A stretch of DNA of 64,000 bases from IMG/VR virus record IMGVR_UViG_3300026159_000398; one strand, 5' to 3'. The position numbers were made by a program, and so were the translations under genes. Below are positions 26,019 to 62,386 of this stretch, in pieces (position 1 is the stretch's first letter; every line of letters starts with the position of its first letter). Source of the DNA: a virus (taxonomy: Duplodnaviria > Caudoviricetes). A model generated the notes under the pieces. The model was not told the origin of the DNA, ran no database searches, and saw nothing but the letters and a program-made list of their open reading frames with translations.

Positions 26019-26104
26019 AGAAGGACAAAGGGTAGCTCCCTGGCTGGTTGCTCTAATCAACCAGCCTCACTTCTATATTTATAATTATATTAGAGGTAAT
26101 TATC
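26019..26104 (+). ncRNA. Structured leader RNA, copy 1 (three-way junction plus kissing loop on the SD)
   Basis: P1 AGAAG/CTTCT; P2 AGGG-TAGCT-CCCT; P3 GGCTGGTTG-CTCTAAT-CAACCAGCC; P4 ATAATTAT-ATTAGAG-GTAATTAT; L3 CTCTAAT is complementary to L4 ATTAGAG. Confidence 0.85.
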
Positions 26105-26773
26105 ATGTCTTATGGTTATATTTATCTGATCAAAGATCATTTTACTAACAAAGTTTATATTGGCAGACGAAAAGGCCATGAATCAAAATCTTTAAATTAT
26201 TTTGGTTCTGGCAAAATTATACACAACATTCTTCATAAAAGAAAACATCATCTTTCTAAAATTGTTCTTGGTTATTGTGAATCTAAAGAGGAGCTTATCA
26301 ACTTAGAAACACAATGTATTGAATTTTTTAACGCTACCAATAAGTTATATGGGTATAATTTAAAATCGACTGGTAATGATGGAGGAGCAATAAGATTCGG
26401 TCCACATTCTGAACAATCGAAACAAAAAATGCGTAAACCAAAATCTAAACAAGCTAGACGAAATATGAAATTAGCACAAAATAAAAATATTAAATTAAAA
26501 CAATTAAATAGTAAACTACTTTGGTCCACTACAACTTACAGATATCAACAAACAAAAGCTTTACAAAAATCTTGGGATGAACATCCAGAACGAAAAAAAC
26601 AATTTTCTAAAATATTTTCTGGCAAAAATAATCCAGCTAATATCAAAATTGATACACAACAAATATTAAAATTATATAATTCTGGTATTAGTATGAGAAA
26701 ATTATCTAAAATGTTTAATTGCACGCATCCAACAATAAGCAAAAGAATTAAAAATCCAGAAAAATATCTTTAG
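26105..26773 (+). CDS. GIY-YIG homing endonuclease (antisense to the late operon)
   Basis: YGYIY...KVYIG...YFGSG...YGYN; NUMOD-like region and C-terminal HTH. Confidence 0.9.
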   Translation: MSYGYIYLIKDHFTNKVYIGRRKGHESKSLNYFGSGKIIHNILHKRKHHLSKIVLGYCESKEELINLETQCIEFFNATNKLYGYNLKSTGNDGGAIRFGPHSEQSKQKMRKPKSKQARRNMKLAQNKNIKLKQLNSKLLWSTTTYRYQQTKALQKSWDEHPERKKQFSKIFSGKNNPANIKIDTQQILKLYNSGISMRKLSKMFNCTHPTISKRIKNPEKYL

Positions 26774-26784
26774 AGCACCACCAT

Positions 26785-26816
26785 AAAAAACCTCTTAATA
26801 TATTTTATTAAGAGGT
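26785..26816 (-). terminator. Intrinsic terminator
   Basis: ACCTCTTAATA/TATTAAGAGGT stem with an A-run on the left (U-tail on minus strand), between convergent genes. Confidence 0.7.
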
Positions 26817-26842
26817 CATGAGTTTTTCTACAATATTTTCGT

Positions 26843-27043
26843 TTATCTAGGCCATTTCTTTGATTGCTCGTAACCAGAGTCATAGCCTTTCTTTGCCATG
26901 ACAGAACCGTACGTGATAATTAAATCTAACAAATCATTTGAATTATTAGGTAATTGTTCGCGAATAGTTCTTAATAATCCATCGGGGTCATTGCTGTCTC
27001 TTTTATCTGCTTCGAGATATTGGCTTAATCGTGATTTACTCAT
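26843..27043 (-). CDS. Small protein with capsid-targeting-like N-terminus (putative internal head protein)
   Basis: Starts MSKSRLSQYLEA. Confidence 0.6.
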   Translation of the reverse strand: MSKSRLSQYLEADKRDSNDPDGLLRTIREQLPNNSNDLLDLIITYGSVMAKKGYDSGYEQSKKWPR

Positions 27044-27058
27044 TTGTTTTTTCCTTGA

Positions 27059-27424
27059 TTAAAATTTCATAGTAGCTAATTCTAAATCTTTTCTATTTAT
27101 TTTTTCAACTGATTCTTCTTTATCAATATTGGCTTTCAGATAAATATCGTATCCCATTTCATCTCTGAGTGCTAATGCCAATTCTTCTTTTTTTAATCCT
27201 GTTTTTTCCGAGTCGAATAAGTACAAATATTTAGGTTTGCTACCATTATCGGTTGTATAGTTGCCACCCATTTCTTGAATGAATTGATACAATCTTTCAT
27301 CATAAGAAAGACCGCGAGTTTCATAGTCGCCATATTCTATTTTGACAGCAAGGTACTTTCCAGTTATTCCAAAGGTGTCTTTTTTCGACTTTACTTCTTC
27401 AAGATATTTTTGTAATTGACTCAT
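27059..27424 (-). CDS. Putative internal head protein
   Basis: Starts MSQLQKYLEE. Confidence 0.6.
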   Translation of the reverse strand: MSQLQKYLEEVKSKKDTFGITGKYLAVKIEYGDYETRGLSYDERLYQFIQEMGGNYTTDNGSKPKYLYLFDSEKTGLKKEELALALRDEMGYDIYLKANIDKEESVEKINRKDLELATMKF

Positions 27425-27711
27425 GCGAGCTCCATCATGTATTTTGCTTGAATTTCTGGTGCAAGAAACGGACAGTGTTTATAATCTTCTGCACATTCCC
27501 AACAAAGAAAATCAGGTTCCCAAAAATACCATCTGAATTTTTCAAACTTGAACATCCTTTTTCCGGCGATATCAGCAACTGAAATTTGTTCAAGGTTTTT
27601 AACTAACGCATTGACCAAAGTTTCAGTCTTGAAATGATCGCGCAAAAAGAAAACATCAAGATTTGAATGACTTAAATAACAACGGTTCTTATAAATTATC
27701 ACAGTATTCAT
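27421..27711 (-). CDS. Hypothetical protein, probably a leaderless early gene
   Basis: No targeting motif and no SD; ATG 5 nt downstream of a sigma70-type -10. Confidence 0.55.
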   Translation of the reverse strand: MNTVIIYKNRCYLSHSNLDVFFLRDHFKTETLVNALVKNLEQISVADIAGKRMFKFEKFRWYFWEPDFLCWECAEDYKHCPFLAPEIQAKYMMELA

Positions 27712-27716
27712 AATTT

Positions 27717-27745
27717 ATCGTACTATTAAATGTTATTTTTGTAAA
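27717..27745 (-). promoter_or_regulatory. Sigma70-type (early) promoter
   Basis: TTTACA-17 bp-TACGAT preceded by ATAAAAGTA, like the copies at 47618 and 48241. Confidence 0.65.
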
Positions 27746-27750
27746 TACTT

Positions 27751-28152
27751 TTATTTCAAATATTGAGTGATATTTCCGGAAAGTATGATCTGTCCGCTTT
27801 GAATATCGAGCTCAATAACGCCATTCGTAAATGGAATTCCTACGCCTTTGTATTTTGCAAGGAAAGTATTCACTGCTTCTGGGGTAATTTTCCATGCTTG
27901 GTTTTCTGGTGATTTTAGAAGACCATCGAAAAGACTTTTCGCGGCTGTATCATTCAAGAAGTTGATTGTCATTGTTTGATCGCCAACTTTAACTTCTTTT
28001 GTTTTGCCTGTTGTGGCACCATCAGCCTTTATAGATGCGACAGCTTTTCCTGCGCTTTTAGAACCTTTGTAAAGCGATATTTGATTTGGGTTTGGCATCG
28101 CCACATCAAATGGTGCTTCACTTAATTGCTTGAGATATTCATGTAGTTGCAT
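27751..28152 (-). CDS. Putative internal head protein
   Basis: Starts MQLHEYLKQLSEA. Confidence 0.55.
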   Translation of the reverse strand: MQLHEYLKQLSEAPFDVAMPNPNQISLYKGSKSAGKAVASIKADGATTGKTKEVKVGDQTMTINFLNDTAAKSLFDGLLKSPENQAWKITPEAVNTFLAKYKGVGIPFTNGVIELDIQSGQIILSGNITQYLK

Positions 28153-29675
28153 TATCGTTTTGCTCCTTTATGGCCTTCGCCACTTTGGTATTTTTGCATG
28201 ATTGAAACAGCCGCCCAACGATGCCAAATTTCTACAGGAGAATCTGACATGGCGAATTTAACAACATCAGTAAAAGTACGGAAGTCCATCTTTTCAACAC
28301 GTTTTGATGGAACAACTTTATCTTTTATGAATTTCAAAGCTTCACGCTTATGACTTTCTGAAGCTCCCGTAATTTCAATGTATTTCATGACGCCTTCAAT
28401 ACGTTTGACAATTTCATCTAGACTCAAACTAACTTCAACTGTCATGGCACGAGACTTAATAGCGCCAGGAATTTGGTGTAAGTATTTGTTGCTAATGAAA
28501 ATTACACGACCATCAAAGTTAAATCTATTTGGGAGAATAGCATTTCCTTTTGTTGGTGACGATGCACGAATACGTTGAACTTCCCAAACTTTTTGCGCGT
28601 GTTGACTTGACAACATAGCTTCGATATTGACTTTCTTTTTGAGTAACTCATCAATAACATCTTGTGGGATATCTTCAACTAATTCATATTTAAGAATTGT
28701 TTCATATAATAGTGGGTCAACTGTATTATTGCTTAGATAACTGATTTCAGTTTCTTTTCCGGAGTCAAGAGCGCCTTTAAGCATATTGACGCAGTCTCTA
28801 TCATCAAGAAGACTATCAAGGTCATCAAATACAATAATTTTGTTGGGGTCGTTGTTAACGAAAAGAACCTTATACAATGCAGATGCTGAAGTGATGGCAC
28901 CAGTAAAAAATTGGTGGTTCGTTCCTTTTAGTTCGTTTTTAACTGTGAAGGTTTTTCCAATACCTGGGTCACCTGTAATAAGGATAGATTTGTTAATGCC
29001 ATCTTTTACTTTCTTAATTGCATCTTCCATGAGAGCGAAGATTTCTTTTGAATTAAGAGGTTCATCAAAAAGTTCTGACCATTCATCAGGTTCTTTAGCT
29101 GGAAGTTTTTCAGCTGGCGCTGATGAAACATTGACAGTTTTTCCAGATTTTTGTGCGCGATATTCAGCACTAAGCTGTTTCATTAATGCAGTATCGCCAG
29201 CTTCTTTAGCGCGTTTATAACGAGCAGACAAAGAATTTGGGTCTGCTGTTCTTGCCATTTCAGTAAAGAACTCTTCAGTAATTGGTTCCTCATCGGGAGA
29301 TGTGGTTACTAATTGAACTTTGCCTTTACGACCATTATGAATAACTTCATCAATAAGAGTCACAACTTCAGTGATATTTAAATCACTTGTGTTAGCTGTA
29401 AATTGTGGATTGACTGCTGGAGCGAGCCAGAAGTCTATGCTGTCAATGTGAGCACTTTGATTATTTGTTTTCCAATTGAGACGGAATGCGTGTTTGGCGT
29501 CATCAAGCATGAACATTGTTCCATACACAACACCTTGGCCTTCTTTCTCAATTAACATGGTGCCATGTTGAACATAAACTTTCTCATTAAATTTACGTTC
29601 AATACGACTTTTAAGAATATCTACAACACGGCCAGATTTTTGTTCAGCCACAGCTTCAAAATATTTCTTAAGCAT
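28152..29675 (-). CDS. AAA+ ATPase with capsid-targeting-like N-terminus
   Basis: Walker A GDPGIGKT, Walker B IIVFDD, VIFISN, AIKSR; starts MLKKYFEA. Confidence 0.8.
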   Translation of the reverse strand: MLKKYFEAVAEQKSGRVVDILKSRIERKFNEKVYVQHGTMLIEKEGQGVVYGTMFMLDDAKHAFRLNWKTNNQSAHIDSIDFWLAPAVNPQFTANTSDLNITEVVTLIDEVIHNGRKGKVQLVTTSPDEEPITEEFFTEMARTADPNSLSARYKRAKEAGDTALMKQLSAEYRAQKSGKTVNVSSAPAEKLPAKEPDEWSELFDEPLNSKEIFALMEDAIKKVKDGINKSILITGDPGIGKTFTVKNELKGTNHQFFTGAITSASALYKVLFVNNDPNKIIVFDDLDSLLDDRDCVNMLKGALDSGKETEISYLSNNTVDPLLYETILKYELVEDIPQDVIDELLKKKVNIEAMLSSQHAQKVWEVQRIRASSPTKGNAILPNRFNFDGRVIFISNKYLHQIPGAIKSRAMTVEVSLSLDEIVKRIEGVMKYIEITGASESHKREALKFIKDKVVPSKRVEKMDFRTFTDVVKFAMSDSPVEIWHRWAAVSIMQKYQSGEGHKGAKR

Positions 29676-29689
29676 GATTCTATTTTCTC

Positions 29690-30046
29690 CTATACATCTG
29701 GAGTTGCGACCATTTTGCCTTTGGTCTGAGGATTTTGTACAAAATCCGAAGGAGGAGTTTTATCTGGCGCATATTTGGCGCTGCCATCTCTCTTAAGAAC
29801 TTCAAGAACTCCTTTAGCGATTTCAGGATATTGTTTTGCAAAATCTTGAACAGATACATTTACTGGATTTCCATTAATAGTTCCTTTTATTAAATTACCT
29901 GCTAATTCAAGATCGTATGTTGTTGCAACAGTTCCAGACATTCCTTTTCCTGTTGTAAGTTCTTTGCTAGAACCGATTGGAGTTGGCGAACCACCTTCCA
30001 TTCTTTCAGTATAAACTTTTTCCATGTATGTGTCAAATTTGCTCAT
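29690..30046 (-). CDS. Putative internal head protein
   Basis: Starts MSKFDTYMEK. Confidence 0.6.
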   Translation of the reverse strand: MSKFDTYMEKVYTERMEGGSPTPIGSSKELTTGKGMSGTVATTYDLELAGNLIKGTINGNPVNVSVQDFAKQYPEIAKGVLEVLKRDGSAKYAPDKTPPSDFVQNPQTKGKMVATPDV

Positions 30047-30232
30047 TTACATTGCCTTTTCCATTATATATTTAAACTCTTTAAATGTGATTTTATTCTG
30101 TTTTATCCAACCCCAAATTATTTTTAATTTGGCATCATAATCATCATGAAATTTACGTAACTTCTCGACGTATTGTTCAGCTAATGCTTCAGAAAATTTT
30201 TCACCTTCAAGATATTCTTCTAATCTACTCAT
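30047..30232 (-). CDS. Putative internal head protein
   Basis: Starts MSRLEEYLEG. Confidence 0.6.
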   Translation of the reverse strand: MSRLEEYLEGEKFSEALAEQYVEKLRKFHDDYDAKLKIIWGWIKQNKITFKEFKYIMEKAM

Positions 30233-30522
30233 TGAGGACCTCCATAGATATTTGGGTTTGCAATTGAGACATCGTTGTTTTTCTTTTCTCTTGGAATGTC
30301 TCGAATGCTTGTCGTCTGTTTTTTACTATCGTCTTCTTTACTCGCTCTTGGTGGAATTAAAATCCATTTCATTTTCTCTCCACATTCTGGACAACCGTTT
30401 TTAAATGGTTGCTTTTGAAGTCTTCTGCATTTAGAACACATATACAATGGTTCCGTTGCATCTATTGTATCAGGTGGTTGAATTCCTTGATAGTCATCGA
30501 GATATTGTTCAAATTTTCTCAT
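30229..30522 (-). CDS. Putative internal head protein with zinc ribbon
   Basis: Starts MRKFEQYLDD; CSKC...CPECG. Confidence 0.6.
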   Translation of the reverse strand: MRKFEQYLDDYQGIQPPDTIDATEPLYMCSKCRRLQKQPFKNGCPECGEKMKWILIPPRASKEDDSKKQTTSIRDIPREKKNNDVSIANPNIYGGPQ

Positions 30523-30904
30523 TACACTCCATCCACAAAATTGGCACTAGGAGAAATTGGTTTACCTGCATCTGGCTTTTGTGGAGCGCTTACCTTTTGA
30601 TCCCAATCTTCTCCTTTCACCGGATTAACTACTTTTTTTTTGTAAGGTTACGGATGATAGAGTCCAATGGTTTGCTGCCCATTGGGCCGGCATTAAACTT
30701 CTCGAGAGTGAGAATGATATCTTTCTGTTCGTCTTCGCCACCCTTCTCATATTTGGCAGTAATTTCGCGTTCCAATTGATGCATACGGTCTCTTTGAATA
30801 ATCATGAGACTGTCGGAATTCAAATAGTTGACATAATCACGAACCATCTCAACTAATTGAGATTCATTAAATATTTGAACGTCTTCCATGAATTTGCTGA
30901 GCAT
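30522..30904 (-). CDS. Putative internal head protein; 91-aa ORF extends to 30522 through a -1 shift in an A9 run
   Basis: Starts MLSKFMED; ACA AAA AAA AAG TAG; the -1 frame reads VVNPVKGEDWDQ...FVDGV to a TAATG overlap with the next gene. Confidence 0.55.
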
Positions 30905-30918
30905 AATGTCCTCTATAG

Positions 30919-30957
30919 AATTATATTACTATTTTGTGCTTTTTGCTTAATATAATT
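30919..30957. promoter_or_regulatory. Divergent pair of TAATATAATT motifs
   Basis: Minus copy 30919-30928, plus copy 30948-30957, between divergent genes. Confidence 0.5.
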
Positions 30958-30961
30958 TTAT

Positions 30962-31444
30962 ATGAAACGCAAAAAACAGCATAAAGTTTATGGTCGTAAT
31001 ACCAAAAAACGAACCATCAAAAAGGCTCTCAAATCATATACAAATCAAGAAACTGGTGAACGTAAAGAATCTTCAATTGAACAAAAAGTCCGTTTGTTTC
31101 TCGAGTCTGCTAATATTCCACATCAGCCAGAAAAGTTTATTGAACATGCTTTTTATGACTTTTTGGTTACTGACGGACTTAATTATACATTCCTTATAGA
31201 ATGTGATGGATGGTGGCACGGTCTTGATTCTAATGGTGAGCCGCTTCCATCAAATAAATTATTAAAAATTCATAAAAAGAATCAACGTAATGATAAACGT
31301 AAAGATAAAATTGCTCAAAAACTTGGGATTCCTTTAATACGACTCAAAGAATCCGACATCAAGAATAATTTTCAAGATATCAAAAAAACTATTCAAAATG
31401 AAATAGAGCGACAAATATATTTTAAACAGAGAGGACAGGACTGA
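30962..31444 (+). CDS. DUF559/Vsr-like endonuclease
   Basis: SSIEQKV...YDFLV...IECDG.WHG...NDKRKDKIAQKLGIPLIRLKESDI. Confidence 0.75.
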   Translation: MKRKKQHKVYGRNTKKRTIKKALKSYTNQETGERKESSIEQKVRLFLESANIPHQPEKFIEHAFYDFLVTDGLNYTFLIECDGWWHGLDSNGEPLPSNKLLKIHKKNQRNDKRKDKIAQKLGIPLIRLKESDIKNNFQDIKKTIQNEIERQIYFKQRGQD

Positions 31445-31511
31445 TCATCTTGATTCAGTACTCCAACTATTGAATCTTACTCTCTGAAATAATTATGTTG
31501 GAGATAATTAT
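31427..31511 (+). ncRNA. Structured leader RNA, copy 2
   Basis: P1 CAGAGAG/CTCTCTG; P2 AGGA-CTGATCA-TCTT; P3 GATTCAGTA-CTCCAAC-TATTGAATC; P4 ATAATTAT-GTTGGAG-ATAATTAT; L3 and L4 complementary. Confidence 0.85.
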
Positions 31512-32094
31512 GCCTACTGGATATATTTATCAAATCATTAACACTTCAAATTTCCATTCTTATATTGGTTACACTAATAATTTCATTTCTAGAATGAATC
31601 GCCATTATAATTGTCGTGGCAATTCTTTAATTTATCGTACATTTAGAAAACATGGTGTTGATAATTTTATTGTAAGAATTCTTGAACAACCATTAATTCA
31701 AAATTTACCAGAACGAGAAAAGTATTGGATTAACTTTTTTGATACATACCAAAATGGGTACAATATGACTCCTGGCGGCGATGGTGGTCCGACAACAAGA
31801 GGCAAAAAAAAGAAACCGCATAGTCTTCAAACAAAACAAAAAATGAGTGAAGATCGAAAAGGTAAATTACGCACTAAAGAATCTAAACAAAAACAAAGTG
31901 AAAGCTTAAAGGGTAATAAAAACCCTAGATTTATTTTTCTTTCCGATACACAAATCAATCAAATTATAAATTTTTATGAAAAACAAAAGTTGACTATAAA
32001 AGAAATTTCAGTTCAAATTAAAATTTCACAATACAAAATTAGACGTCTTTTAAAAGAACAAGATATTTACTTCGATTCACGGAATCCGAGATAA
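31510..32094 (+). CDS. GIY-YIG homing endonuclease
   Basis: Start reassigned to MPTGYIYQ (after SD GGAG); SYIG...R..RH...RKHGVDNF...EKYWI...GYNMTPGG. Confidence 0.9.
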   Translation: MPTGYIYQIINTSNFHSYIGYTNNFISRMNRHYNCRGNSLIYRTFRKHGVDNFIVRILEQPLIQNLPEREKYWINFFDTYQNGYNMTPGGDGGPTTRGKKKKPHSLQTKQKMSEDRKGKLRTKESKQKQSESLKGNKNPRFIFLSDTQINQIINFYEKQKLTIKEISVQIKISQYKIRRLLKEQDIYFDSRNPR

Positions 32095-32205
32095 ATTTTG
32101 ACTTTAAACATGTACAGGAGAAAATTCAAGATGAGATCAATCGCCAAATCAATTAAAGACACCATAATATTTTGTGTAAAAGTGTTTTCTTGGGCTATAA
32201 AAAAA

Positions 32206-35737: not shown

Positions 35738-35924
35738 GAGCTGCATACTCCATTATTTCATTTGCTGCCTGCTCAATTTTAGCAAGTACTTGAATTCCAG
35801 GAAAGCTTAAATCTTCATTATCACGAAGTGTATTACAATAACGTTGAATGAGGTCTGCAGCTTTGGCAATACTATTAGCCTGCATCTCATCCATTTTTTC
35901 GAAATATTCTTTAAATTTACTCAT
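35730..35924 (-). CDS. Putative internal head protein
   Basis: Starts MSKFKEYFEK. Confidence 0.65.
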   Translation of the reverse strand: MSKFKEYFEKMDEMQANSIAKAADLIQRYCNTLRDNEDLSFPGIQVLAKIEQAANEIMEYAAHE

Positions 35925-36166
35925 TACTTAATTCCTTTTGATTTTAACCAACGCTTTATGCCATGAGGATATCCATCATTGATTTCGGCGTTTGATTTAC
36001 ACATTGAATGATTGATTTTATTAAACCACTTTTTGCGACTTTCTTCTGACATATCTTTGTACTGAGGAAGCTCACTAAAAAGTTTGAACATTTTTTCCGC
36101 AGACATTCTATTAGCACCGGGTATTCGTTGCTTTGCTGCTTCAAGATATTGGTTAAATTTACTCAT
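35924..36166 (-). CDS. Putative internal head protein
   Basis: Starts MSKFNQYLEA. Confidence 0.65.
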   Translation of the reverse strand: MSKFNQYLEAAKQRIPGANRMSAEKMFKLFSELPQYKDMSEESRKKWFNKINHSMCKSNAEINDGYPHGIKRWLKSKGIK

Positions 36167-36168
36167 TG

Positions 36169-36930
36169 TTATTCATCCTCTAATTCGTTGATTTCCATAT
36201 GCAAAAAATTTCTCCAGTAAAAACCAAAGATATCCTTGAGAATTGGATCAATTTTATAACTTAATTCTTCATCTGTTTTTGGGATTGTAAAGTGGAAAAG
36301 AAATTCGTCACCTTCTTTTAATAAAATAACATCAACATTGAATTTCTTAATCATGGCGGCTTTAATTTTGTTTGCGTCGGTTCTAGTCATCTTTTTATTG
36401 CCGGCCCACAATTTTTTCTGACGAATCAACATTTCATAATATTGAGATGGGACTTCAGATTTTTTACCACCCATGTATTTGTCACCACGCATCTGACGTC
36501 CTTCATAACCAGCTTGGTCATGGCGTCCAGTCAATAATTCTTCCATCGCATAGTCAGGTTCCATAGTAAGCCATTCAGCAGCTTCATCAGCATCTTGGAA
36601 CATGTAGTAAGCCATGATATCGAGAAGTTTTCCACGAACTTTGCCACCATCTGAAGTTTCCCAAACTGTGAGGGTTTTATTTGGGTAATATGCGTAACCA
36701 CCGCCACTGAGACCTGCGCCTTTCTTCAATTCAGGAGTAAGTGCAAGAATAACATCATAAAGATCATCAACTGAAAATCCTTCAACAGCGCGTGACATCA
36801 TAATTTCTTTGATGACTCGTGGAGAACCGTAAGCACGCAATTGTTCAATGGCGTCTTTTATTACTTCGGCGTCGTATTCTTGTGGTTGACGCTTTTTAAG
36901 TGCCTCAAGATATGTATGTAATCTTCCCAT
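36169..36930 (-). CDS. Putative internal head protein
   Basis: Probable start MGRLHTYLEA. Confidence 0.6.
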   Translation of the reverse strand: MGRLHTYLEALKKRQPQEYDAEVIKDAIEQLRAYGSPRVIKEIMMSRAVEGFSVDDLYDVILALTPELKKGAGLSGGGYAYYPNKTLTVWETSDGGKVRGKLLDIMAYYMFQDADEAAEWLTMEPDYAMEELLTGRHDQAGYEGRQMRGDKYMGGKKSEVPSQYYEMLIRQKKLWAGNKKMTRTDANKIKAAMIKKFNVDVILLKEGDEFLFHFTIPKTDEELSYKIDPILKDIFGFYWRNFLHMEINELEDE

Positions 36931-42398: not shown

Positions 42399-43454
42399 TT
42401 GAAAATTGGCATGATAGCCGACCTCCACATGAATCTTTTCAGGAGGTTTAACCCGTTTTTCGTTCATGTTGAAGCCGCAGTTGATGAGTTTGTTCGCCTT
42501 TGTAAAGAGAAGGAAGTTCAAACGATAGTAATTCCAGGTGATTTTTTCCATACGAAATATCAGCTTTCTACTGAAGCTCTCATCAAAGCAAATAAAATTC
42601 TTCAGAAACTTTTAGACGCCGCTTGGGACCCTCATGTAAAGGTCATTATTATTCGTGGCAATCATGATTCTGCTTCATCAGCCGAACTTGATGTCAACTT
42701 GTGTGAGAATTATCGAAAAGTTCCAGGTGTCATAGTCGTCAATGATTATCAGCGAATTCCAATGGAAGATTGTTTTTTACATTGTATCGCATATTTCGAA
42801 GGTGATGAACTGAAGCAAAAGGTTTTTGACTGTAATTCTGGAAAACCAGCCAGTGATTGGAATAAAAAGAATATTTTGTTCGGCCATTTTGCTGTCGCTG
42901 GTTTTAAGATGAATCAGGATTATGAAGACAAACATGGACTGGACCAAGTTAATTTGCTTGATGCGTTCACAAAAGTCTTTTTGGGACACTTCCACGGCTA
43001 TCAAAATAGAGGGAATACGTATTACATTTCAGCGCCGTTGCAATCAAAACACGGTGATGAGACGTCACAACACGGCTTTTTGTTCTACGACACCTCCAGT
43101 GACATTGTGGAATTTGTTGAAAATAAACTATCACCTTCTTTTATAACATTGCCTCTGGTCAAACAGAGTGTCAAAGACGCTTTAACACTGAAGAACCATT
43201 ATATTCGATTTATTGTCAGCAAGCATGTTTCTCGTGACTTACTCACATCAGTTCGTCAGAAACTGCTCGTTAACAATTATGACGTCGAATATAAGTTCAA
43301 CATAAAGGACGATGTCCTTCAGTTCACATCGATGGAAGGCTTCATAGATTTGAAGCACTATTCGATTGATGAACTCTTCACAGTATACCTACAAGACATA
43401 CAACTACCTACAGATACGACAATTCAAGAATTGCTCAATGCAATTTTGTCGTAG
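42399..43454 (+). CDS. Recombination endonuclease, metallophosphoesterase subunit (T4 gp47 / SbcD / Mre11-like)
   Basis: DLH, GDFFH, GNHD, FGH and LGHFH motifs. Confidence 0.9.
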   Translation: MKIGMIADLHMNLFRRFNPFFVHVEAAVDEFVRLCKEKEVQTIVIPGDFFHTKYQLSTEALIKANKILQKLLDAAWDPHVKVIIIRGNHDSASSAELDVNLCENYRKVPGVIVVNDYQRIPMEDCFLHCIAYFEGDELKQKVFDCNSGKPASDWNKKNILFGHFAVAGFKMNQDYEDKHGLDQVNLLDAFTKVFLGHFHGYQNRGNTYYISAPLQSKHGDETSQHGFLFYDTSSDIVEFVENKLSPSFITLPLVKQSVKDALTLKNHYIRFIVSKHVSRDLLTSVRQKLLVNNYDVEYKFNIKDDVLQFTSMEGFIDLKHYSIDELFTVYLQDIQLPTDTTIQELLNAILS

Positions 43455-43513
43455 TTTATATTTACAAAAATAACAACAATTATTTCAGAGGTCAATAAAT
43501 ATAATTATATACA

Positions 43514-43600
43514 GGAAGGACAGAGGGTAGCTCCCTTGACTCAGTACCCGAATTACTGAGTCTTACTTCCGATCTTATAATTATATTCGGGATAATTATC
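43514..43600 (+). ncRNA. Structured leader RNA, copy 3
   Basis: P1 GGAAG/CTTCC; P2 AGGG-TAGCT-CCCT; P3 GACTCAGTA-CCCGAAT-TACTGAGTC; P4 ATAATTAT-ATTCGGG-ATAATTAT; AAATATAATT at 43497-43506 upstream. Confidence 0.85.
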
Positions 43601-44134
43601 ATGTCATACGGCTACATTTATCTCATTAGAGACCATTTCACAAATAAAGTTTATGTTGGGCAAAAGAAAGGAGCACCAGAAAGTACTCAAAATTATTTTG
43701 GTTCTGGTCGTATTATTACAAATATTATTGCTCAAAGAAAACATTTATTAGAAAAAATTATTCTTGGTTATTGTGAATCGATGGATGAACTTAATAATGC
43801 TGAAAAATTATGTATTGAGTTTTTTCAAAGCAATAACAGAATTTATGGTTATAATTTAACAAATGGTGGTGAAGGATTTTCTGGATATCATTTTTCAGAT
43901 GAACATAAAAAACATTTGAGAAAAAATAAAAAGATGCCTCCACGATCAATTGAACATCAACGTAAATTAAATGAATCACATACAGGTAAAAAACGAGGAC
44001 CATTATCTGAAGAACATAAGCAAAAATTACGTGATGCTAAAATCAATTATGTTCCATGGAATAATGGAAAACATCTTTCAGAAGAACATAAAAGAAAAAT
44101 TAGTGAGTCAAATAAAAGGAGTAAAAATAAATGA
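43601..44134 (+). CDS. GIY-YIG homing endonuclease with NUMOD3-like repeats, between gp47 and gp46
   Basis: YGYIY...KVYVGQ...YFGSG...YGYNLTNGGEG; SEEHKQKL/SEEHKRKIS. Confidence 0.9.
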   Translation: MSYGYIYLIRDHFTNKVYVGQKKGAPESTQNYFGSGRIITNIIAQRKHLLEKIILGYCESMDELNNAEKLCIEFFQSNNRIYGYNLTNGGEGFSGYHFSDEHKKHLRKNKKMPPRSIEHQRKLNESHTGKKRGPLSEEHKQKLRDAKINYVPWNNGKHLSEEHKRKISESNKRSKNK

Positions 44135-48872: not shown

Positions 48873-48893
48873 GACTTATGTTCACATACACAC

Positions 48894-48924
48894 AAAAAAA
48901 GCTCCTCTTTTTTAAGGAGGAGCT
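48894..48924 (-). terminator. Intrinsic terminator after the tail tube gene
   Basis: GCTCCT...AGGAGC stem preceded by A7 on the plus strand. Confidence 0.65.
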
Positions 48925-48958
48925 CAGGAAAATATGAGAACTATATGAAATAATCCGC

Positions 48959-49675
48959 TTATGCTGTACCCAAGATGGCCCCTGCATTTTGATAACGTTC
49001 GAGCGGATTAGCTGCTGTGTAATTGTATGTGTAAATTTCAGCAGGATAGATGTTGTCACATGCAAATTCAACATTGACTTTTCTGAATTCACCAGCCGCA
49101 GCATCGTGGTCTGGCATATTGACGTTGACCGGATAGAGGTTTACGATTTCATACTTTTGAAGGTATGGAGGACCACCATGCTCGTCGCAATATTCATCAG
49201 AATATCCAGGAGCGTCAGGTCCATAGACATAAAAGTTTGCAATTGGGAGAACATAGTCTTGTTTGAATCCAATCGCACCAGTTCTCTTATCACCAACGAA
49301 AGCTCTCCAAAGCTGCATGATAGCAGACGTAGAACCATTGACGTAGTCAACGAAGTCTACGTTGAACATATCCATTGGCGCAAATTTTGTGACAGTCTTG
49401 AATTGGTCGTTGAAACGAGGAATTTCAGCGACTTCCAATTTTGGAAGTGGCAAGTTCGATTTGATCAACGAAATTTCGACTGAAGTTGCTGGGTCTCCAC
49501 CAAGAGCGTTCTTGACTGCATTATAAAATGTCTGAACGCCGAACAAAGGGGAGATCGGAGCTTTATTTAACAATAGATCTGTAAGGCCAATGAATCTCAA
49601 CGAGAAACGGTTTGTGTTGATTGTTTGTTCGTTATATACCTTCTTTATCCTGAAGATGTTGCCTTTGCCGGCCAT
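48959..49675 (-). CDS. Tail tube protein (gp19-like)
   Basis: NRFSLRF...LP...F.D...QLWR...G..GFKQDY...NLYPVNV...VNVEFACD; downstream of the sheath gene. Confidence 0.85.
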   Translation of the reverse strand: MAGKGNIFRIKKVYNEQTINTNRFSLRFIGLTDLLLNKAPISPLFGVQTFYNAVKNALGGDPATSVEISLIKSNLPLPKLEVAEIPRFNDQFKTVTKFAPMDMFNVDFVDYVNGSTSAIMQLWRAFVGDKRTGAIGFKQDYVLPIANFYVYGPDAPGYSDEYCDEHGGPPYLQKYEIVNLYPVNVNMPDHDAAAGEFRKVNVEFACDNIYPAEIYTYNYTAANPLERYQNAGAILGTA

Positions 49676-49783
49676 ACTAAATACCTCTTAATTTTCGAAA
49701 ATAGAGTAATTACTACATTTATTTTACGTTCATAATGAAAAAGATACTATTTTTTTCTCGTTAATTAAATATAATTCTATATA

Positions 49784-49870
49784 CGGAAGGACAAGCAGGC
49801 ATGCCTGATAAGTTGTCACCTCAATTTATCTAACTTCCGCTACATTTTTTATAATTAAGGTGATAATTAT
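49784..49870 (+). ncRNA. Structured leader RNA, copy 4 (6-nt kissing loops)
   Basis: P1 CGGAAG/CTTCCG; P2 region AGG-CATG-CCT; P3 GATAAGTTG-TCACCT-CAATTTATC; P4 ATAATTA-AGGTGA-TAATTAT; AAATATAATT at 49767-49776. Confidence 0.85.
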
Positions 49871-50453
49871 GAACCAACCGTACGGCTACATTTATTTAAT
49901 TTACGATCATTTTCATAATCATTGTTATATTGGGCAGAAAAAAGGTTTAGTAGAAAAAACAACAGATTATTTTGGTTCAGGAAAAATCATTTTTTCAATT
50001 ATCAAAAAACGTAAACATCATTTAGAAAAACGAATTCTTGGTTATTGTGAAACAAAAGAAGAATTAGATGAGGCAGAAAAAGTATGTGTAGAATTTTATC
50101 AAAGTAATGATAGAAGATATGGTTATAACATTACTACTGGTGGTTCTGGTGGAAGTTTTAAAGGAATAAATAAAGGCAGAAATTTTTCCAACGAACATAA
50201 AAGCAAATTAAGTCAAAAACGCAGATTAAGAATTATTTCTGGAGCAACTAAACACAAAATTAGTGAATCATTAAAAGGTAAACAAAACAATCTTTGGACA
50301 GAAGAAAGTAGAAAAAGAAATAGTAACTCTCATTTAGGCAACCAAAATAAATTAGGTTGTAAATTAAGCCCAGAATCTCGTCAAAGAATTAGTCAATCGC
50401 AACTTGGCAAAAAGCGAGGACCATACAAAAAGAGCCTAGATCAAAAAATCTAG
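49869..50453 (+). CDS. GIY-YIG homing endonuclease, antisense, between sheath and tube genes
   Basis: Start reassigned to MNQPYGYIY; CYIGQ...YFGSG...YGYNITTGG; NUMOD3-like repeats. Confidence 0.9.
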   Translation: MNQPYGYIYLIYDHFHNHCYIGQKKGLVEKTTDYFGSGKIIFSIIKKRKHHLEKRILGYCETKEELDEAEKVCVEFYQSNDRRYGYNITTGGSGGSFKGINKGRNFSNEHKSKLSQKRRLRIISGATKHKISESLKGKQNNLWTEESRKRNSNSHLGNQNKLGCKLSPESRQRISQSQLGKKRGPYKKSLDQKI

Positions 50454-50466
50454 GCTCTTTGTTTTA
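50427..50466. terminator. Bidirectional intrinsic terminator
   Basis: AAAGAGCCTAGAT/ATCTAGGCTCTTT with A- and T-rich flanks, between convergent genes. Confidence 0.75.
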
Positions 50467-50481
50467 CAATATTTTATTTAG

Positions 50482-53400
50482 CTAAAATTGTACTATAACC
50501 TGTGTATCACGCATCACGCTGATAACTTTGATCTTTTCAATCTTCTTGATTGGTGTCCAAACGATCATTGAGATCATACCGCTACTTGCTTCAATAATTG
50601 CAGGGTCAGCATCAATCATTGCAGGGTCGGTAATAACTGCCCAATCTTTATCAATACCTTCTTCTGGTTTAATCGCTTGAGCGTTAATAAGAGGAGTGAT
50701 AATGTCTTTCTTAATAACAGCTTCAAATTCGTCTCTCGTATCTTTTGTGATAGGGAGGTAGAAGAAGTCAGGAACGATATTCATCAGCATGCGTTTCATG
50801 AACAATGAAACTCTCATGACGCCGATACGATTGTATGCGTTCTTTGTTCTTTGAGTCGTCTTCTGACCGTCAATGAAGAATCCTTGTTTGTTTGTGTAAA
50901 CGATTGGGTTGATATTGTTTCCAATATTGTCATCGTATGCACGACCTTTATCTTCTTCTGTAAGGTAAATTGCTATATCGTTGACATTTGCAAGAGGAGC
51001 AAATTTACCAGCAGCTGGAGTATATTGGTTGAATTCACGGTCAACAGCAACAATCGCAGGAACGGCTACTCGTGAAGGTGGCATCCATTGTTCGCTTGTA
51101 ACTGTAGAAGCTGTGTCAACCAAAACCCATGGGAAGTAAGTAACAAGGTACTTAGAATCCAATGTCATATTAAGAATGCTTGGAAGATCACCATTGTGCC
51201 AGTAAATCATTTGGTCGATAGAACCAAGCAACTTACCTGCTACAGTTTCAGGTGGGTCAACAACACCGAAGCAGTCTTTGCGGTATTCGCAAATTTCTTG
51301 GATTTTTGCAATAACGATTGCTGTGCTGTTTCCAGTTACGCAAAGCATGTCAACATCAAAGATGTCCATGTTTTTGTATTCGTTAAGAGCTGCAGAATAC
51401 TGAGCATCAGTTACTGCGTTGCTGATACCTGAAGTACCACCATTCAATTGATATGTTCCATCAGGAATTGGGTCAATTGTAGTTGGTGAACCAACAGGAA
51501 GAGTATAAGTAACGTAGTTCTGAAGTCTTGTGTCATTGTTGATCAAAGTTCCGAAGAACGTATTAGCTGCAACAGTAGAACTGTAATTCGTGATACGAGC
51601 AATCAAAGATGTGTCATTCCAGAATTCCATGTAAGGAATTCCATTTGAAGAACCTTTGATCATCTTGATGTTGTTGCCATCAGTACCAGTGTACTTAGCA
51701 GTCAGTGTACCCATATTCAGAGAAGCAGCTTCGCCTGCGTAAACGATATCTGTGTAGTCATAAGCTGCATCATTATCTTTTACTGCGAGGAAGTCAAGAA
51801 GATTTCCATTTTGTGCGTAGCGATAAACGCCAACGAACAAGTTGTCGATAGTCATCGCAGTAGCGGCTGCAACTGTACCGACTCTGAAAATCAGTGAGTA
51901 AGTTCCAGCAGCTTTTGAGTAGAATCCAAGTCTTATAGTTCCAGTTGTTGCAGGAACAGCTTGACTTGCGATTGTTACGCCATTATTGTCAACAATGTCA
52001 GCCTTAATGTTTGTAGCTGCGGCTGGAGCAGCTGACAATGTAAAATACATTTCCATGTATGTGTATGCTGGAGCTGTGAAGTGAACACCTGCTCCGCTTG
52101 TTGCGATTGCAGCTGAAGTTGTAGTAACAACCAAGTTTGCAGTTCCAAGAGCTGCAGAAACTCCAACTACTGGGCTAAGAGCAGCAGCAGGAGTTGTAGT
52201 CGTTGGTGTAGTACCTGGAGTAATGAGAATATCTCCACTTCCATTGATTGTAACTGTTGCTGCGCTCCATGTTCCTTCAGCTGCTCTTACTGCTGTTTGC
52301 ATGATTGCAAGTACTTGTGTCCAAGTATAACTTACACCAGCTGCCAAAACAGTAGAAACATCAACTGCTGAAACGTTAGGAGTTCCAGTTGCCAATGAGA
52401 ACTTATAAGTTCCTGCTGGTAGTGGGCAATGATCAGAACCAACGATACCATCACCGCTGAAAACTATTGTACAAGAATCAGTTCCAGCTGTGTAAGTAAT
52501 TGTTTGACCAGAGAAAAAGTCAAGAGAAACTTTCAAATCATCACTGAGAGTTGTGTATGAAGGAGAACCAGCGGCGAAGTCACCACCATTATCTGTACCA
52601 AGAAGGTTTAGAGCGGTTTCCATTCCATCGGTCAGCAAGTTTTGAGTAGGTTGGTCTTTGATTTCAATTGTGTAAGAAGAACCTTGATCGTTAGTTTGTA
52701 TTTCAAATTTACCAGAAGTTCCAAGGAAAGCAGTCGCATTAGCAGTGATTGCTGCATTGATTGCAGTTACAATAGCTTCTGCACTTGTATTAGCAGAAGT
52801 TGAAGTGCTTGGGTTCGTTGCTGTTACACTTGGAAAAACAACTGGGAAGCTCGTAATTCTTATAGAAGAACTTGCACCATATTCGTTGCTATTGATTGAG
52901 ATGGCGTCTGTTCCACTTTTACGAATGATGTTTTTTGGGTCGTAACCAGTCATACCAGTTACAGTACCAATAACTTGTTTCTTAAGAGCGTAAATCAGTT
53001 TGTCGATGTATGACATAACTGTCGCGCCAGTTAATCCACCGTAATTTTCGTCAGTTACTGCACCAACGCCTGTGAGCTTGCACAGAATGTCGCTTGAAGA
53101 ACTGATGATATATTGGTATGCAACACCATCAACAAACAATTCAATGTAGTCGCCTGCTGTAAAATTTGCAGCAGTCAGAGATTCGCTTGTGATTGCAGAA
53201 CAACGTGCACTCTTTGAAAGAGTTACAGTAGTGTCTCCACCACCATTCAATTCAACAACGAAGATATTGTCTGAGTCGTTGACTTTCAGTGATTTACCAG
53301 AAATGGCTTCTGCACCAACAAACTTGGCTGCAACAGCGGCTTTAGCAAGCAGTTTAGAAGCTGCAGTGTCAGAACCGTCTGTGATACGTGTGAAGAAGCA

Positions 53401-60127: not shown

Positions 60128-60137
60128 GGGAAATTCC

Positions 60138-60905
60138 TTAATTTTGTAATAGAGGCAGAGGTCTTTGCATTCCTTTTAATTCAGTCTCAAGTTTTTCTAT
60201 TGAGGCTGCTGCTTCTGTTTTTAAAGCTTCACCGTCTGCGGCCAAGTTTGTTCCTGTTGCATTGACACCACTAAACTTGCTTCTAATAGTACCAAGCATC
60301 ATCTTAGCACAAGCTAGAGCATATTTCTTTATCCAAATTTGCTCTTCAGCTTCAGACTCTGTTAATGTGCCTTTGTATAAAATGCCAACATCTGTGACTG
60401 GTTGATTGATAGGAAAGAGATAAATCTTGTTGTCCAAGATTTCCCACATCTTGTCAATGCCAACAATCTTCTTGATATCTTCAAGGCGTTGTAAATATGT
60501 ATAGTATAAAGGCAAATTAAACTGTGAAAAAATATTAAGAATACCCTGTTGGTTGAAAACAGGTATGACAGTTCCTTCGAATTCTCCGATAAAACCACCA
60601 GCTGCGATACCAGAACCAAGGCTATCAAAAAAGCTGGATGGAAATAGAATATCAACAATCATTTCTTTATTCAATCCAGTTGGAATATCAAATGGATTTG
60701 AAACAATCGTTTGATGAATAAGACGATAATCTACAGTTGCGTATCTATGATACATTGTCAAGGCGTCGATGATGGCAGTTCTGATATGTTCTTCTGTCAA
60801 TTCAACGCGTACAAGTGGATATCCTAAAGAATATAAAATATAATTCTTAAGATTGACGTAGTGATTGGTGTATTCAGCGGCGTTTACATCTTGATTTATA
60901 TACAT
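60138..60905 (-). CDS. Neck protein (gp13-like)
   Basis: LKNYILYSLGYPLVRVELTEEH..AI.DAL...WIKKYALA.AK..LG.IRSKF. Confidence 0.85.
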   Translation of the reverse strand: MYINQDVNAAEYTNHYVNLKNYILYSLGYPLVRVELTEEHIRTAIIDALTMYHRYATVDYRLIHQTIVSNPFDIPTGLNKEMIVDILFPSSFFDSLGSGIAAGGFIGEFEGTVIPVFNQQGILNIFSQFNLPLYYTYLQRLEDIKKIVGIDKMWEILDNKIYLFPINQPVTDVGILYKGTLTESEAEEQIWIKKYALACAKMMLGTIRSKFSGVNATGTNLAADGEALKTEAAASIEKLETELKGMQRPLPLLQN

Positions 60906-61570
60906 TTTAATCTCTCAGAAATAGTGCGATGTGAAGTATCAAATAATACGGCGATCTTTCTTAAACTATAACCTTCTTCACGAAGTTGTTTTATTTGATT
61001 GTTATTGATATCATTTCTAAATGCTGGATTTTTGTTTCCTTTGGCAACGCCTCTTTCTTTTCGTGTTTTACTAATTGCCTCACGCATTGTTTGATCATAT
61101 CCTCTATGGTTTTGTTTTCTCGATAAAGATCTTTTTTGTAACGATTCTTTAGATAAAACAACCGTTTTTCCTAAACGTGCTTTACTTAATTTTTGTTTGT
61201 GAGCTTCAGTTTTTGGACCAGTATATCCTTCGCCACCATTTGTTAAATTAGTTAACGGTCCTAAAACCAAGTCATTTCTGCCTATTTGAGAAATAAGTTG
61301 TTTTTCTAATTCTAAAGCATCTTGAAACAATAAATTTTCTTTAATATGAACAACAATAGGTCTCATTTCGCATGATAAGATTTTTTTTATTTTATTTGTT
61401 TTATGTTTATTTGGGTCGTTTTTTAAATTTGATTTTCTGAGATGTGCTGTATCTCGTGAACCACTTCCGACGCCAACATAAAATGGTTCAAAATCAAAAT
61501 AGTTTTCTTGATAACAAAAATTTCCGGGTTTTCGTGGGTCAAGATAAATGTAAATGTAGTGTTTATTCAT
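60896..61570 (-). CDS. GIY-YIG-family homing endonuclease with HTH
   Basis: YIYIYLDPRKPG...PFYVGVG..R...H...E..LI..IGR...LTNLTNGGEG; GYSLRKIA. Confidence 0.85.
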   Translation of the reverse strand: MNKHYIYIYLDPRKPGNFCYQENYFDFEPFYVGVGSGSRDTAHLRKSNLKNDPNKHKTNKIKKILSCEMRPIVVHIKENLLFQDALELEKQLISQIGRNDLVLGPLTNLTNGGEGYTGPKTEAHKQKLSKARLGKTVVLSKESLQKRSLSRKQNHRGYDQTMREAISKTRKERGVAKGNKNPAFRNDINNNQIKQLREEGYSLRKIAVLFDTSHRTISERLKCI

Positions 61571-61576
61571 TTTCCC

Positions 61577-62221
61577 TTATTGAGGTTGAATTTGCAGGCA
61601 CCAGCCTGATTTGTCTTTGTTTTTTGCAAAGAACGTGTCCCATGAATAGCGAACATTGAAGCCTGATGCTTCATATCCTGGAGATAATGCGTATCCGTAT
61701 GGGTCAAGAACAAAAACATCACGCGTTTCGTCATCGTAACCAACGCAGCAATTGATGTGACCAGCAACTTTATGACCATATTTGGCGTTTGCGCTGCTGA
61801 AGTTTCCACAAATGACTTGAGGAATATTGGCATTGTCAATCAATGCACAAACTTCTTCAAAAGAGATATGATCTGAAAATTCTGAATCATATCCAATCTT
61901 ATTCATTAAATCATCGAACATTTTTTCTTCTACTTTACCAACGAGCCATGATTTTTCAAAATAGTCTTTTGTCCATGGTCCAACAGCTTTCAGCATCCAT
62001 TGTTTTATGGAACTGGTTTTTGCCATTTTTGTCAAGTAGTCTTCTATTTGTTCTTCATCAATTCCAAGATCTCTTGTAGTTTTACCAGTCATAGTGAGAA
62101 TATAATCAATACACATTGCTACTGAGGTAGGAAAGCATGTAACAAATGGATTATATTTATTGTTTCTTTGCGTGTGGTAAAAATCGCTTAAAGCAACTTT
62201 AGTTACGTAGTGTGCACTCAT
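61577..62221 (-). CDS. C39-like cysteine peptidase
   Basis: Q...CFPTSVAM (catalytic Cys), GHINCCVGYD (His), LDPYG (Asp). Confidence 0.75.
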   Translation of the reverse strand: MSAHYVTKVALSDFYHTQRNNKYNPFVTCFPTSVAMCIDYILTMTGKTTRDLGIDEEQIEDYLTKMAKTSSIKQWMLKAVGPWTKDYFEKSWLVGKVEEKMFDDLMNKIGYDSEFSDHISFEEVCALIDNANIPQVICGNFSSANAKYGHKVAGHINCCVGYDDETRDVFVLDPYGYALSPGYEASGFNVRYSWDTFFAKNKDKSGWCLQIQPQ

Positions 62222-62304
62222 ATTGATTCTCCTGTAGATATATTTAATGAATTATAGAAAATGAGCATAAAAATTTACGTGTGTCTTTAATATAATTCTA
62301 TATC

Positions 62305-62386
62305 GGAAGGACAAGAACTGATCATTCTGACTCGGTACCTCGAATACCGAGTCTTACTTCCAACTTTTAATTATTCGAGGTAATTA
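62305..62386 (+). ncRNA. Structured leader RNA, copy 5
   Basis: P1 GGAAG/CTTCC; P2 AGAA-CTGATCA-TTCT; P3 GACTCGGTA-CCTCGAA-TACCGAGTC; P4 TAATTA-TTCGAGG-TAATTA; TAATATAATT at 62288-62297. Confidence 0.85.

Follow-up and report, generated by a model that had tools for sequence, protein, structure and literature searches.

Why should one structured RNA leader stand, copy after copy, before the homing-endonuclease genes of a single phage, each time with a loop that fits the ribosome-binding site of the gene it precedes? The question is raised by a 64,000-nucleotide stretch of viral DNA (hereafter the window), part of a 205,232-base IMG/VR virus record (G000), in which five such leaders, c1 to c5, each about 90 bases long, run up to the start codons of genes for GIY-YIG endonucleases. 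Our answer, to which we give a probability of roughly three in four, is that the leader locks, in cis, the ribosome-binding site of the homing-endonuclease mRNA and holds translation of the nuclease down. The pairing on which this answer turns is a contact between the loop of one hairpin and the Shine-Dalgarno (SD) region, and it is exact in every copy of the genome.

Direct reading of the leader elements at the five sites, with all coordinates checked by script against the window, bore out the single fold that an initial annotation of this DNA had described. Its parts follow in the order helix P1, an unpaired GACA, hairpin P2, hairpin P3, a 3-nt linker (TCA, TTA or TAA), the 3' strand of P1, a spacer of 2-12 nt and hairpin P4. 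P1 has 5 bp (AGAAG/CTTCT or GGAAG/CTTCC), extended to 7 bp in c2 (CAGAGAG/CTCTCTG), and P3 is a 9-bp stem with a 7-nt loop, L3, except in c4, where 8-9 bp carry a loop of 6 nt. P4 is an all-A/T hairpin with arms (A)TAATTA(T); its loop, L4, holds the SD and its 3' arm reaches or overlaps the ATG. L3 and L4 are exact complements in all five window copies (7/7 in four, 6/6 in one), just as annotated, and we could extend this to all eight copies of the genome.

The three additional copies came from a covariance model, R1, trained on c1, c2, c3 and c5. The model recovers the left-out c4 at E=4.5e-6; with filters off, both strands of the window yield no sixth site, and elsewhere in the 205-kb record the model finds three further copies, for a total of eight. 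Their L3/L4 pairs are again exact: CCTCAAC/GTTGAGG, CTCTACT/AGTAGAG (c7) and CTCGTAA/TTACGAG. When each L3 was set against each SD-containing tail in an 8x8 table, the diagonal showed complementarity over the full loop (7, 7, 7, 6, 7, 7, 7 and 7 nt) and the off-diagonal cells 2-5 nt, with eight different sequences among the eight loops. The chance that a random loop of equal composition would find full complementarity somewhere in the tail is 0.002-0.012 per copy. In every copy, L3 lies 31-39 nt from its target on the same strand.

The helices vary in the same coordinated manner. Pair counts were made on a model-built alignment of nine sequences, in which standard pairs occupy 94.7% of cells and both-sided changes occur in 23 of the 32 pairs; none of 500 shuffles matched these counts, and sliding the partner by 1-3 columns left 35-50% of cells paired. 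Compensatory changes reach 8/9 pairs of P3 and 6/7 pairs of the L3/L4 helix, where the unpaired cells come from a misplaced L4 in three rows of the model-built alignment, all exact complements by eye. The nearest copies, c1 and c7, differ in their loops by a single compensatory step (CTCTAAT/ATTAGAG vs CTCTACT/AGTAGAG) and in P3 by one pair, G-C to A-T (GGCTGGTTG/CAACCAGCC vs GGCTGATTG/CAATCAGCC). The stems contain at least 15 G-U cells, which agree with a sense-strand RNA and with neither DNA nor the antisense strand. The minimum-free-energy fold reproduces P1-P4 in seven of the eight copies, and the isolated L3:L4 duplexes come to -5.3 to -9.0 kcal/mol. We favor an SD-locking P3 loop in a structured leader because this covariation is hard to explain otherwise; together with the specificity table it supports the annotated idea that the leader locks the ribosome-binding site.

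All five window copies lie on the plus strand. Copy c1 (26019..26107; 96 bits) has P1 at 26019-23/26070-74, GACA at 26024-27, P2 at 26029-32/26038-41, P3 at 26042-50/26058-66 with L3 CTCTAAT at 26051-57, the linker TCA at 26067-69, and P4 at 26081-88/26096-103 around L4 ATTAGAG (26089-95), which holds the SD, before the ATG at 26105. Copy c3 (43514..43603; 99 bits) is built of P1 43514-18/43566-70, GACA, P2 43523-27/43533-37, P3 43538-46/43554-62, L3 43547-53 (CCCGAAT), linker TTA, P4 43577-84/43592-99 and L4 43585-91 (ATTCGGG), with its ATG at 43601. The left-out copy c4 (49785..49871; 35.6 bits, with the E-value given above) has P1 at 49785-89/49834-38, P2 at 49796-99/49804-07, P3 at 49808-15/49822-29, L3 TCACCT at 49816-21, P4 at 49851-57/49864-70, L4 AGGTGA at 49858-63 and an ATG at 49869; optional pairs are a sixth in P1 (C49784-G49839), implied by the start coordinate of the initial annotation, and one that brings P3 to 9 bp (G49807-C49830). 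In c5 (62305..62388; 85.3 bits) the parts are P1 62305-09/62357-61, P2 62314-17/62325-28, P3 62329-37/62345-53, L3 62338-44 (CCTCGAA), linker TTA, P4 62368-73/62381-86, L4 62374-80 (TTCGAGG) and ATG 62386. Copy c2 (31427..31512; 84.7 bits) comprises the 7-bp P1 31427-33/31480-86, P2 31437-40/31448-51, P3 31452-60/31468-76, L3 31461-67 (CTCCAAC), linker TTA, P4 31489-96/31504-11, L4 31497-503 (GTTGGAG) and ATG 31510. This last leader overlaps the end of an upstream DUF2726/DUF5889-like open reading frame (ORF; 30962-31444), whose TGA (31442-44) lies inside P2; ribosomes ending there would open P1 and P2, and translational coupling of the two genes is possible.

One further match of an L3 was considered and treated as chance. 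The word CCTCTAAT (25960-67), 58 nt before c1, is on the other strand the SD region ATTAGAGG of a divergent gene at 25323-25952 and is identical to c1 L4. The c1 L3 could also pair with the mRNA of that gene; with 16 occurrences of the word in the genome and no such match in any other copy, this one is probably chance.

How the leader comes to be transcribed is suggested by a promoter-like box, [GT]TAATATAATT[ACT]TA, which lies upstream of P1 in seven of the eight copies and contains a perfect TATAAT that stops 8-11 nt short of P1. In the window it is present on the plus strand before c1 (TAATATAATTATA, 26001..26013, TATAAT 26004-26009, 9 nt before P1), c3 (AAATATAATTATA, 43497..43509, TATAAT 43500-43505), c4 (AAATATAATTCTA, 49767..49779, TATAAT 49770-49775) and c5 (TTAATATAATTCT, 62288..62300, TATAAT 62291-62296); c2 has no box of its own. 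Across the whole 205-kb genome no 8-mers are more enriched in front of genes, ordinary genes included, than words of this box, and replication-type genes such as a DnaE-like gene are preceded by the box as well. To judge from its distribution, the box is most likely a common promoter of the phage, with RNA starting at about P1. A sigma-70 scan found no -35/-10 pair for the c3 box, and the box appears to function, if at all, without a -35 element. A second word family, AATAAAAGTATTTACAAAAA, is also enriched upstream of genes (for example at window 48240-48300, genome ~79130) and may be another promoter class with a -35-like TTTACA.

From these elements we infer that RNA starts at the box and that the pairing lowers translation. 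The box, 9-11 nt ahead of P1 in four of the window copies (lacking in c2), would start the transcript at or just before P1, and the first ~57 nt would form a three-way junction of P1, the J1/2 strand GACA, P2, P3 and the J3/1 strand U-N-A. Such a stable junction would present the 6-7-nt L3, which, transcribed before the SD, would capture the SD on its emergence. In this phage, with the SD carried by the loop of the weak all-A/U P4, the contact would be a loop-loop kiss of 6-7 bp with all loop bases paired, like that of ColE1 RNA I and RNA II; in most relatives in other phages, which have no P4, it would be a plain pseudoknot. Either contact would keep the 30S subunit off, and little of a potentially harmful nuclease would be made.

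The genes behind the leaders agree with a role in nuclease control. The c1 gene (26105..26773, plus strand, as are the other four) encodes a GIY-YIG homing endonuclease of 222 amino acids with a C-terminal helix-turn-helix; Pfam gave only weak helix-turn-helix matches, and the alignment shows the hallmarks GYIY..YIG, a conserved E and YGYN..GG. The genes of c2 (31510..32094; Pfam GIY-YIG 8.4e-9 and NUMOD3 8.8e-7, and alignment), c3 (43601..44134), c4 (49869..50453, taking as start the ATG at 49869, in frame with the mechanically listed GTG 49860) and c5 (62386..62925; Pfam and alignment) encode GIY-YIG proteins with NUMOD3. GIY-YIG hallmarks are thus aligned in all five window proteins, with Pfam matches to GIY-YIG in c2 and c5 and to NUMOD3 in c2-c5. 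Identity of the nuclease proteins to known Seg-like enzymes does not exceed 35%, and megablast of window 25900-32200 gave no match among cultured phages.

The initial annotation had tied the leader to GIY-YIG genes, and this restriction does not hold. The same core precedes genes for TnsA-like PD-(D/E)xK nucleases (with a C2H2 finger) and for DUF723/DUF4379 zinc-ribbon nucleases; c7 itself, with a P3 nearly that of c1, precedes a TnsA-like nuclease rather than a GIY-YIG enzyme. Every downstream gene that could be placed by Pfam or alignment, including all eight in G000, is a homing-type nuclease, from at least three families; a few downstream genes outside G000 have no Pfam match or stop early. 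The latter are the nuclease ORFs behind the leaders L134 354-425, L166 2631-2717 (minus strand) and L146 10226-10390, which end after 24-55 codons under translation table 11 and may be decayed genes or belong to phages with a reassigned stop codon. This breadth argues against the annotated suggestion that the endonuclease binds the leader to repress its own synthesis: unrelated proteins would all need to recognize one core, and autorepression is therefore unlikely.

Four other nuclease-type genes of the genome have no leader (G000:C1:19024-19686, 35893-36555 and 6173-6850, and window 6243-6815 on the minus strand). In two of them, 19024 and 6173, the box lies inside a plain SD-sequestering inverted repeat, such as CCTCTTAAT-ataattt-ATTAAGAGG before 19024. 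Since leader-less nuclease genes mask the SD by an inverted repeat, SD masking is the common theme for such genes in this phage. Genes for tRNAs (Phe, Arg, Asn) adjoin cassettes c6 and c7 and the leader-less genes 19024 and 6173 (L005 2160-2232 and 2318-2391; L205 40-114; L206 30-103), an arrangement that recalls segB in the T4 tRNA cluster; the 64-kb window contains no tRNA genes. Directly after the c8 nuclease gene comes an ORF like the middle part of a DnaE-type polymerase (L007 1596-3093 = G000:C1:184904-186401), and an ORF with a PHP-like N-terminus starts at G000:C1:180476 (180476-182035). This polymerase gene may be split by inserted elements.

Comparison with related phages suggests that these cassettes move as wholes. 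DNA contigs from anaerobic-digester, biogas and wastewater runs were compared with window 42400-51400. The c3 gene lies between an SbcD-like gene (42399-43454) and an SbcC-like gene (44131-46053), and in relatives the box, leader and gene are absent together from that place, which defines an insertion unit of 43397..44127 (plus strand; joint 43396->44128 in runs X3 and X4 of one study). The c4 unit spans 49676..50491 (plus strand; joints 49675->50492/50495 in runs X2, X3 and X4 of two studies), and relatives that lack it carry 66-69 other letters in place of box, leader and gene. Other contigs at the c3 site have leaders with a different P3 and L3 (loose ends 43538 and 43575), which suggests that leader modules are exchanged. 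The claim that promoter, RNA and homing-endonuclease gene form one mobile unit is therefore supported by these whole-cassette absences and by the box in four of the five window copies (all but c2). Judged by the joints, promoter, leader and nuclease gene would move jointly as one cassette.

Leaders of the same kind are found well beyond this record. We scanned IMG/VR with sequence patterns that left L3 and the tail free and filtered the matches by the covariance model and a custom parser, and the breadth of the family rests on these two filters. A loose DNA pattern with 14 fixed bases gave 80 loci, mostly not recognizable as members, of which the model accepted two (E up to 0.1); tighter patterns then recovered family members. 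A pattern on the conserved P2 found two viral contigs and no metagenome contigs, and a second metagenome scan returned mostly the same viral contigs. A MAFFT alignment of 22 junctions was inconsistent in P2 and P3. The common core N-GAAG / GACA / P2 / U(U) / P3 / UUA / CUUC-N recurs in many unrelated uncultured contigs, and whole-record searches added further copies in two large contigs. The proposal to build a covariance model and list the genes behind its matches thus yielded the left-out copy, three new genome copies and relatives in other phages with their downstream genes.

Although the patterns left both partners free, nearly all relatives have an L3 that is perfectly complementary to a stretch of 5-7 nt falling on the SD or abutting its 5' side. 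Examples are ccaatt/AATTGG-AGG, ccacat/ATGTGG-AGG, ccgctt/AAGCGG-AGG, ctgttc/GAACAG-GAG, cctaatt/AATTAGG-GAG, tttactc/GAGTAAA and ccgaca/TGTCGG-AGG, together with the pair CCTTTAT/ATAAAGG vs CCTTTAC/GTAAAGG; the parser counted 22 such cases vs 1 in reversed-sequence controls. P4 fared differently: present in all five window copies as annotated, it is a lineage feature, absent from most members outside G000 and its relative G001, and L3 there faces a single-stranded SD region. In many contigs outside G000 a box 6-12 nt before P1 reads TATAAATA or ATAAATA, the T4 late-promoter consensus, and the leaders of G001 and G002 are likewise preceded by the T4 late consensus TATAAATA.

One carrier is in culture. 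Enterocloster phage CB457P1, whose host is Enterocloster bolteae, has one full copy before an I-TevI-like gene (28.1 bits, E=4e-4), at OP172753.1 8657-8758 (L203 1495-1596), with P1 TAAATAA/TTATTTA, L3 CTGCAA and the complement TTGCAG 17 nt after P1. This phage and four sister phages share 19 identical bases of J1/2 and P2. The cultured jumbo phages KP13-7, GAP32 and fHe-Yen9-04 have related zinc-ribbon nucleases and no leader copy; two weak model matches in jumbo phages proved to be a terminator and coding sequence, and we discarded them.

Several observations weigh against a simple cis-acting lock. The lowest-energy fold of c1 pairs the 3' strand of P1 with the SD in place of the expected arrangement, the L3/SD pairing of L192 requires one G-U, and in CB457P1 ~16 nt separate the L3 complement from the downstream SD that is nearest the annotated ATG. 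Since the transcript from the cassette's promoter itself bears the lock, a fixed brake seems wasteful where a weak SD would do. Conservation of the junction strands (GACA, U-N-A) and palindromes in the P2 loops hint that the junction is more than a scaffold. Among unpaired bases, conservation is limited to GACA and the U-N-A linker, to which most members add 1-2 mostly-U bases between P2 and P3. The P2 loops, which in the window lie at 26033-37, 31441-47, 43528-32, 49800-03 and 62318-24, nearly always carry a self-complementary word (TGATCA, GCATGC, GTCGAC, TTGCAA, TCATGA, AGCT, GGCC, GCGC or TGCA). A palindrome of at least 4 nt occurs in 15 of 17 distinct P2 hairpins from window copies and relatives (L158, L164, L146, L153 and L166, for example) and one of 6 nt in 6 of the 17; this count was reached in none of 20000 random-loop trials, and only 5 of 22 L3 loops have a palindrome. 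The words could reflect RNA dimerization through the loops, a DNA-level site or a mutation bias from template switching.

The alternative that survives best is one that may overlay the lock rather than replace it. The initial annotation had missed that the 5' arm of P4 is a copy of the core of the phage promoter box at its usual distance from the SD. It is possible, and we hold it as a tentative idea on the doubtful side, that this arm is a second promoter in the manner of T4, whose transcripts would start at the SD, without L3 or the 5' arm of P4, and be translated, while those from the upstream box or from read-through would carry the whole leader and stay silent. TATAAT is intact in six of the eight arms (the exceptions are AATAAT in c2 and TTTAAT in c5), and seven of the eight, weaker hexamers included, have a spacing of 5-7 nt to the SD, in keeping with the TATAAT-N5-8-SD geometry of genuine boxes before ordinary and leader-less nuclease genes elsewhere in the genome. 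The leader-less genes 19024 and 6173, moreover, have the I-TevI-like layout of a box in an SD-sequestering repeat (PMC2988022). Against two-promoter timing, the inner box has no conserved AATA directly 5' of its hexamer, the hexamers of c2 and c5 are weak, and the gap of 2 nt in c4 would make that transcript begin after its SD. In most relatives, too, both P4 and any box between P1 and the SD are missing, although the L3/SD pairing and a box directly before P1 are retained.

A more speculative and, in our estimate, unlikely extension is that the junction serves many endonuclease families as a portable, programmable anti-ribosome-binding-site adaptor. Its conserved core and palindromic P2 loop would sense RNA concentration (through loop-loop dimers), a factor of host or phage, or a small molecule, and the copy-specific loop would accordingly free or seize the SD, whether in cis or in trans. 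If this were true, each selfish nuclease would have its own addressable, timed switch.

Narrower, and in our view quite improbable, is a conditional switch. The junction would bind an ion, a small molecule or a protein of host or phage, or would dimerize through the palindromic P2 loop; the L3/SD contact would be made or broken in response, which would confine nuclease synthesis to a particular state of the infected cell. The constancy of GACA and of the linker UUA/UAA/UCA across distant phages while all helices covary speaks for it, as do the P2 palindromes and the apparent poor economy of a fixed brake on the cassette's own promoter. However, only ~8 unpaired bases are conserved, no conserved alternative pairing of L3 or P3 was seen, the unrelated nucleases downstream have no metabolic link, and no Rfam riboswitch model matched even at E up to 10. 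Since nucleases from unrelated families share the core, a switch operated by the nuclease itself would be unlikely in turn. The ligand sensing put forward in the initial annotation accordingly finds no support in the number of conserved unpaired bases, the folds or the genes served.

We give little credence to the leader RNA, released or still attached, being a trans regulator whose L3 binds the SD of separate mRNAs from its own gene, such as short ones from the inner box, with copy-specific loops serving as addresses that prevent cross-talk among the eight cassettes. Each L3 does fit only its own SD region. But the two partners stand 31-39 nt apart on one strand, where intramolecular pairing should win; drift followed by compensation explains the loop diversity without addresses; and neither a short leader RNA on its own nor a terminator behind P1 can be recognized. 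A further pointer to action in trans is a sister form of the junction in the 204-kb contig G001, at L183 (G001:C1:43228-43319, minus strand) and also at L185, L187, L189 and L191. It has a longer P2 with a loop ending in CTCC, and its junction is followed by TATTTATA, the reverse complement of TATAAATA. L183 and a neighboring GIY-YIG gene are divergently transcribed, and the SD of that gene, GGAGTG, has its complement in the P2 loop of L183 (..CACTCC). This divergent arrangement points to a version of the scaffold that may act in trans.

There is next to no likelihood that the copies are a DNA-level element (a cruciform, or a recombination or homing site) or similarity left over from gene duplication: hairpins are inverted repeats in DNA too, palindromic P2 loops resemble protein-binding DNA sites and the copies are paralogues, but the G-T cells of the stems, at least 15, would be A-C mismatches on the other strand, a tertiary contact between L3 and L4 that always involves the SD is meaningless in duplex DNA, and compensatory changes between paralogues are the opposite of residual similarity.

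The proposed cis-acting lock has recognizable counterparts among known RNAs. Several riboswitches pair a loop with the SD, by the L5-L13 kissing loop of cobalamin riboswitches or by the pseudoknots of the preQ1-II/III, SAM-II, SAM-V and SAM/SAH classes. The leader resembles them in masking the ribosome-binding site through a tertiary loop contact, with a structured, aptamer-like domain upstream, and differs in having no Rfam match, no large conserved pocket, no metabolic genes and no evidence of a ligand. In ColE1 RNA I/RNA II, R1 CopA/CopT and IS10 RNA-OUT/RNA-IN, antisense transcripts from opposite strands kiss in trans. Fully complementary loops of 6-7 nt whose addresses differ between related elements are common to these systems and the leader, and R1 and IS10 block translation of a mobile-element gene, as we propose here; in the leader, by contrast, both loops lie on one strand of one RNA, and only the divergent form in G001 resembles the trans layout. 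The purine riboswitch and the type I/III hammerhead likewise have three helices at a small junction that places a loop for a tertiary contact. The leader, however, has no CUGAUGA/GAAA core and no purine pocket, and the partner of its loop is outside the junction. No Rfam model of a self-cleaving ribozyme (hammerhead, twister-sister) matched, and the junction strands are only GACA, U and U-N-A.

That the leader belongs to no named family, as initially annotated, is in line with the Rfam search set beforehand as the check on this point: across the whole window, the 4227 models of Rfam 15 gave no match at the gathering threshold. For c3, raising the limit to E of 10 brought only unrelated matches near E=1 (MCS4, SdsR, snoRNAs, a miRNA), with no riboswitch, ribozyme or int-alpA (RF02996) among them. 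We found no description of the leader in the full-text literature searched, which does not cover subscription journals, and a large survey of candidate structured phage RNAs mentions homing endonucleases only in a reference (PMC10690425).

Sequestration of the ribosome-binding site is an established control of the homing endonucleases of T-even phages, and a box inside an SD-sequestering repeat is the layout of I-TevI, I-TevII, I-TevIII, segB and Aeh1 mobE (PMC2988022). The present leaders share with those hairpins the control of phage homing endonucleases in cis, at translation, by an SD hidden in RNA structure; they too have a promoter-like box within the SD hairpin (P4), and the leader-less genes of this phage share the T4 layout. 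In T-even phages, however, the SD lies in the stem of a single stem-loop, whereas here P4 presents it in a loop (in relatives it is single-stranded) and the P3 loop of a separate, conserved three-way junction ~35 nt upstream binds it. One junction core here serves unrelated nuclease families in distant phages, and the promoter precedes the whole leader, whose own transcript thus carries the lock. As a principle, then, SD masking of homing-endonuclease genes has a T-even precedent; what had no description in the papers searched is the structure with its tertiary contact, and its spread over nuclease families and phages.

The leader is a well-founded candidate for a new RNA family, and covariation of a tertiary contact is rarely so clear from sequence alone. 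It marks homing-endonuclease cassettes and their borders for phage annotation, and its re-addressable loop makes it a possible small part for tuning translation. CB457P1, as a cultured carrier, makes bench tests feasible. Homing endonucleases made in excess or at the wrong time harm the genome in which they reside. To our knowledge, the only RNA control described for them so far is the simple hairpin and late promoter of T-even phages. The leader would add to this a distinct and more elaborate layer of control, with a loop matched to the ribosome-binding site of each gene.

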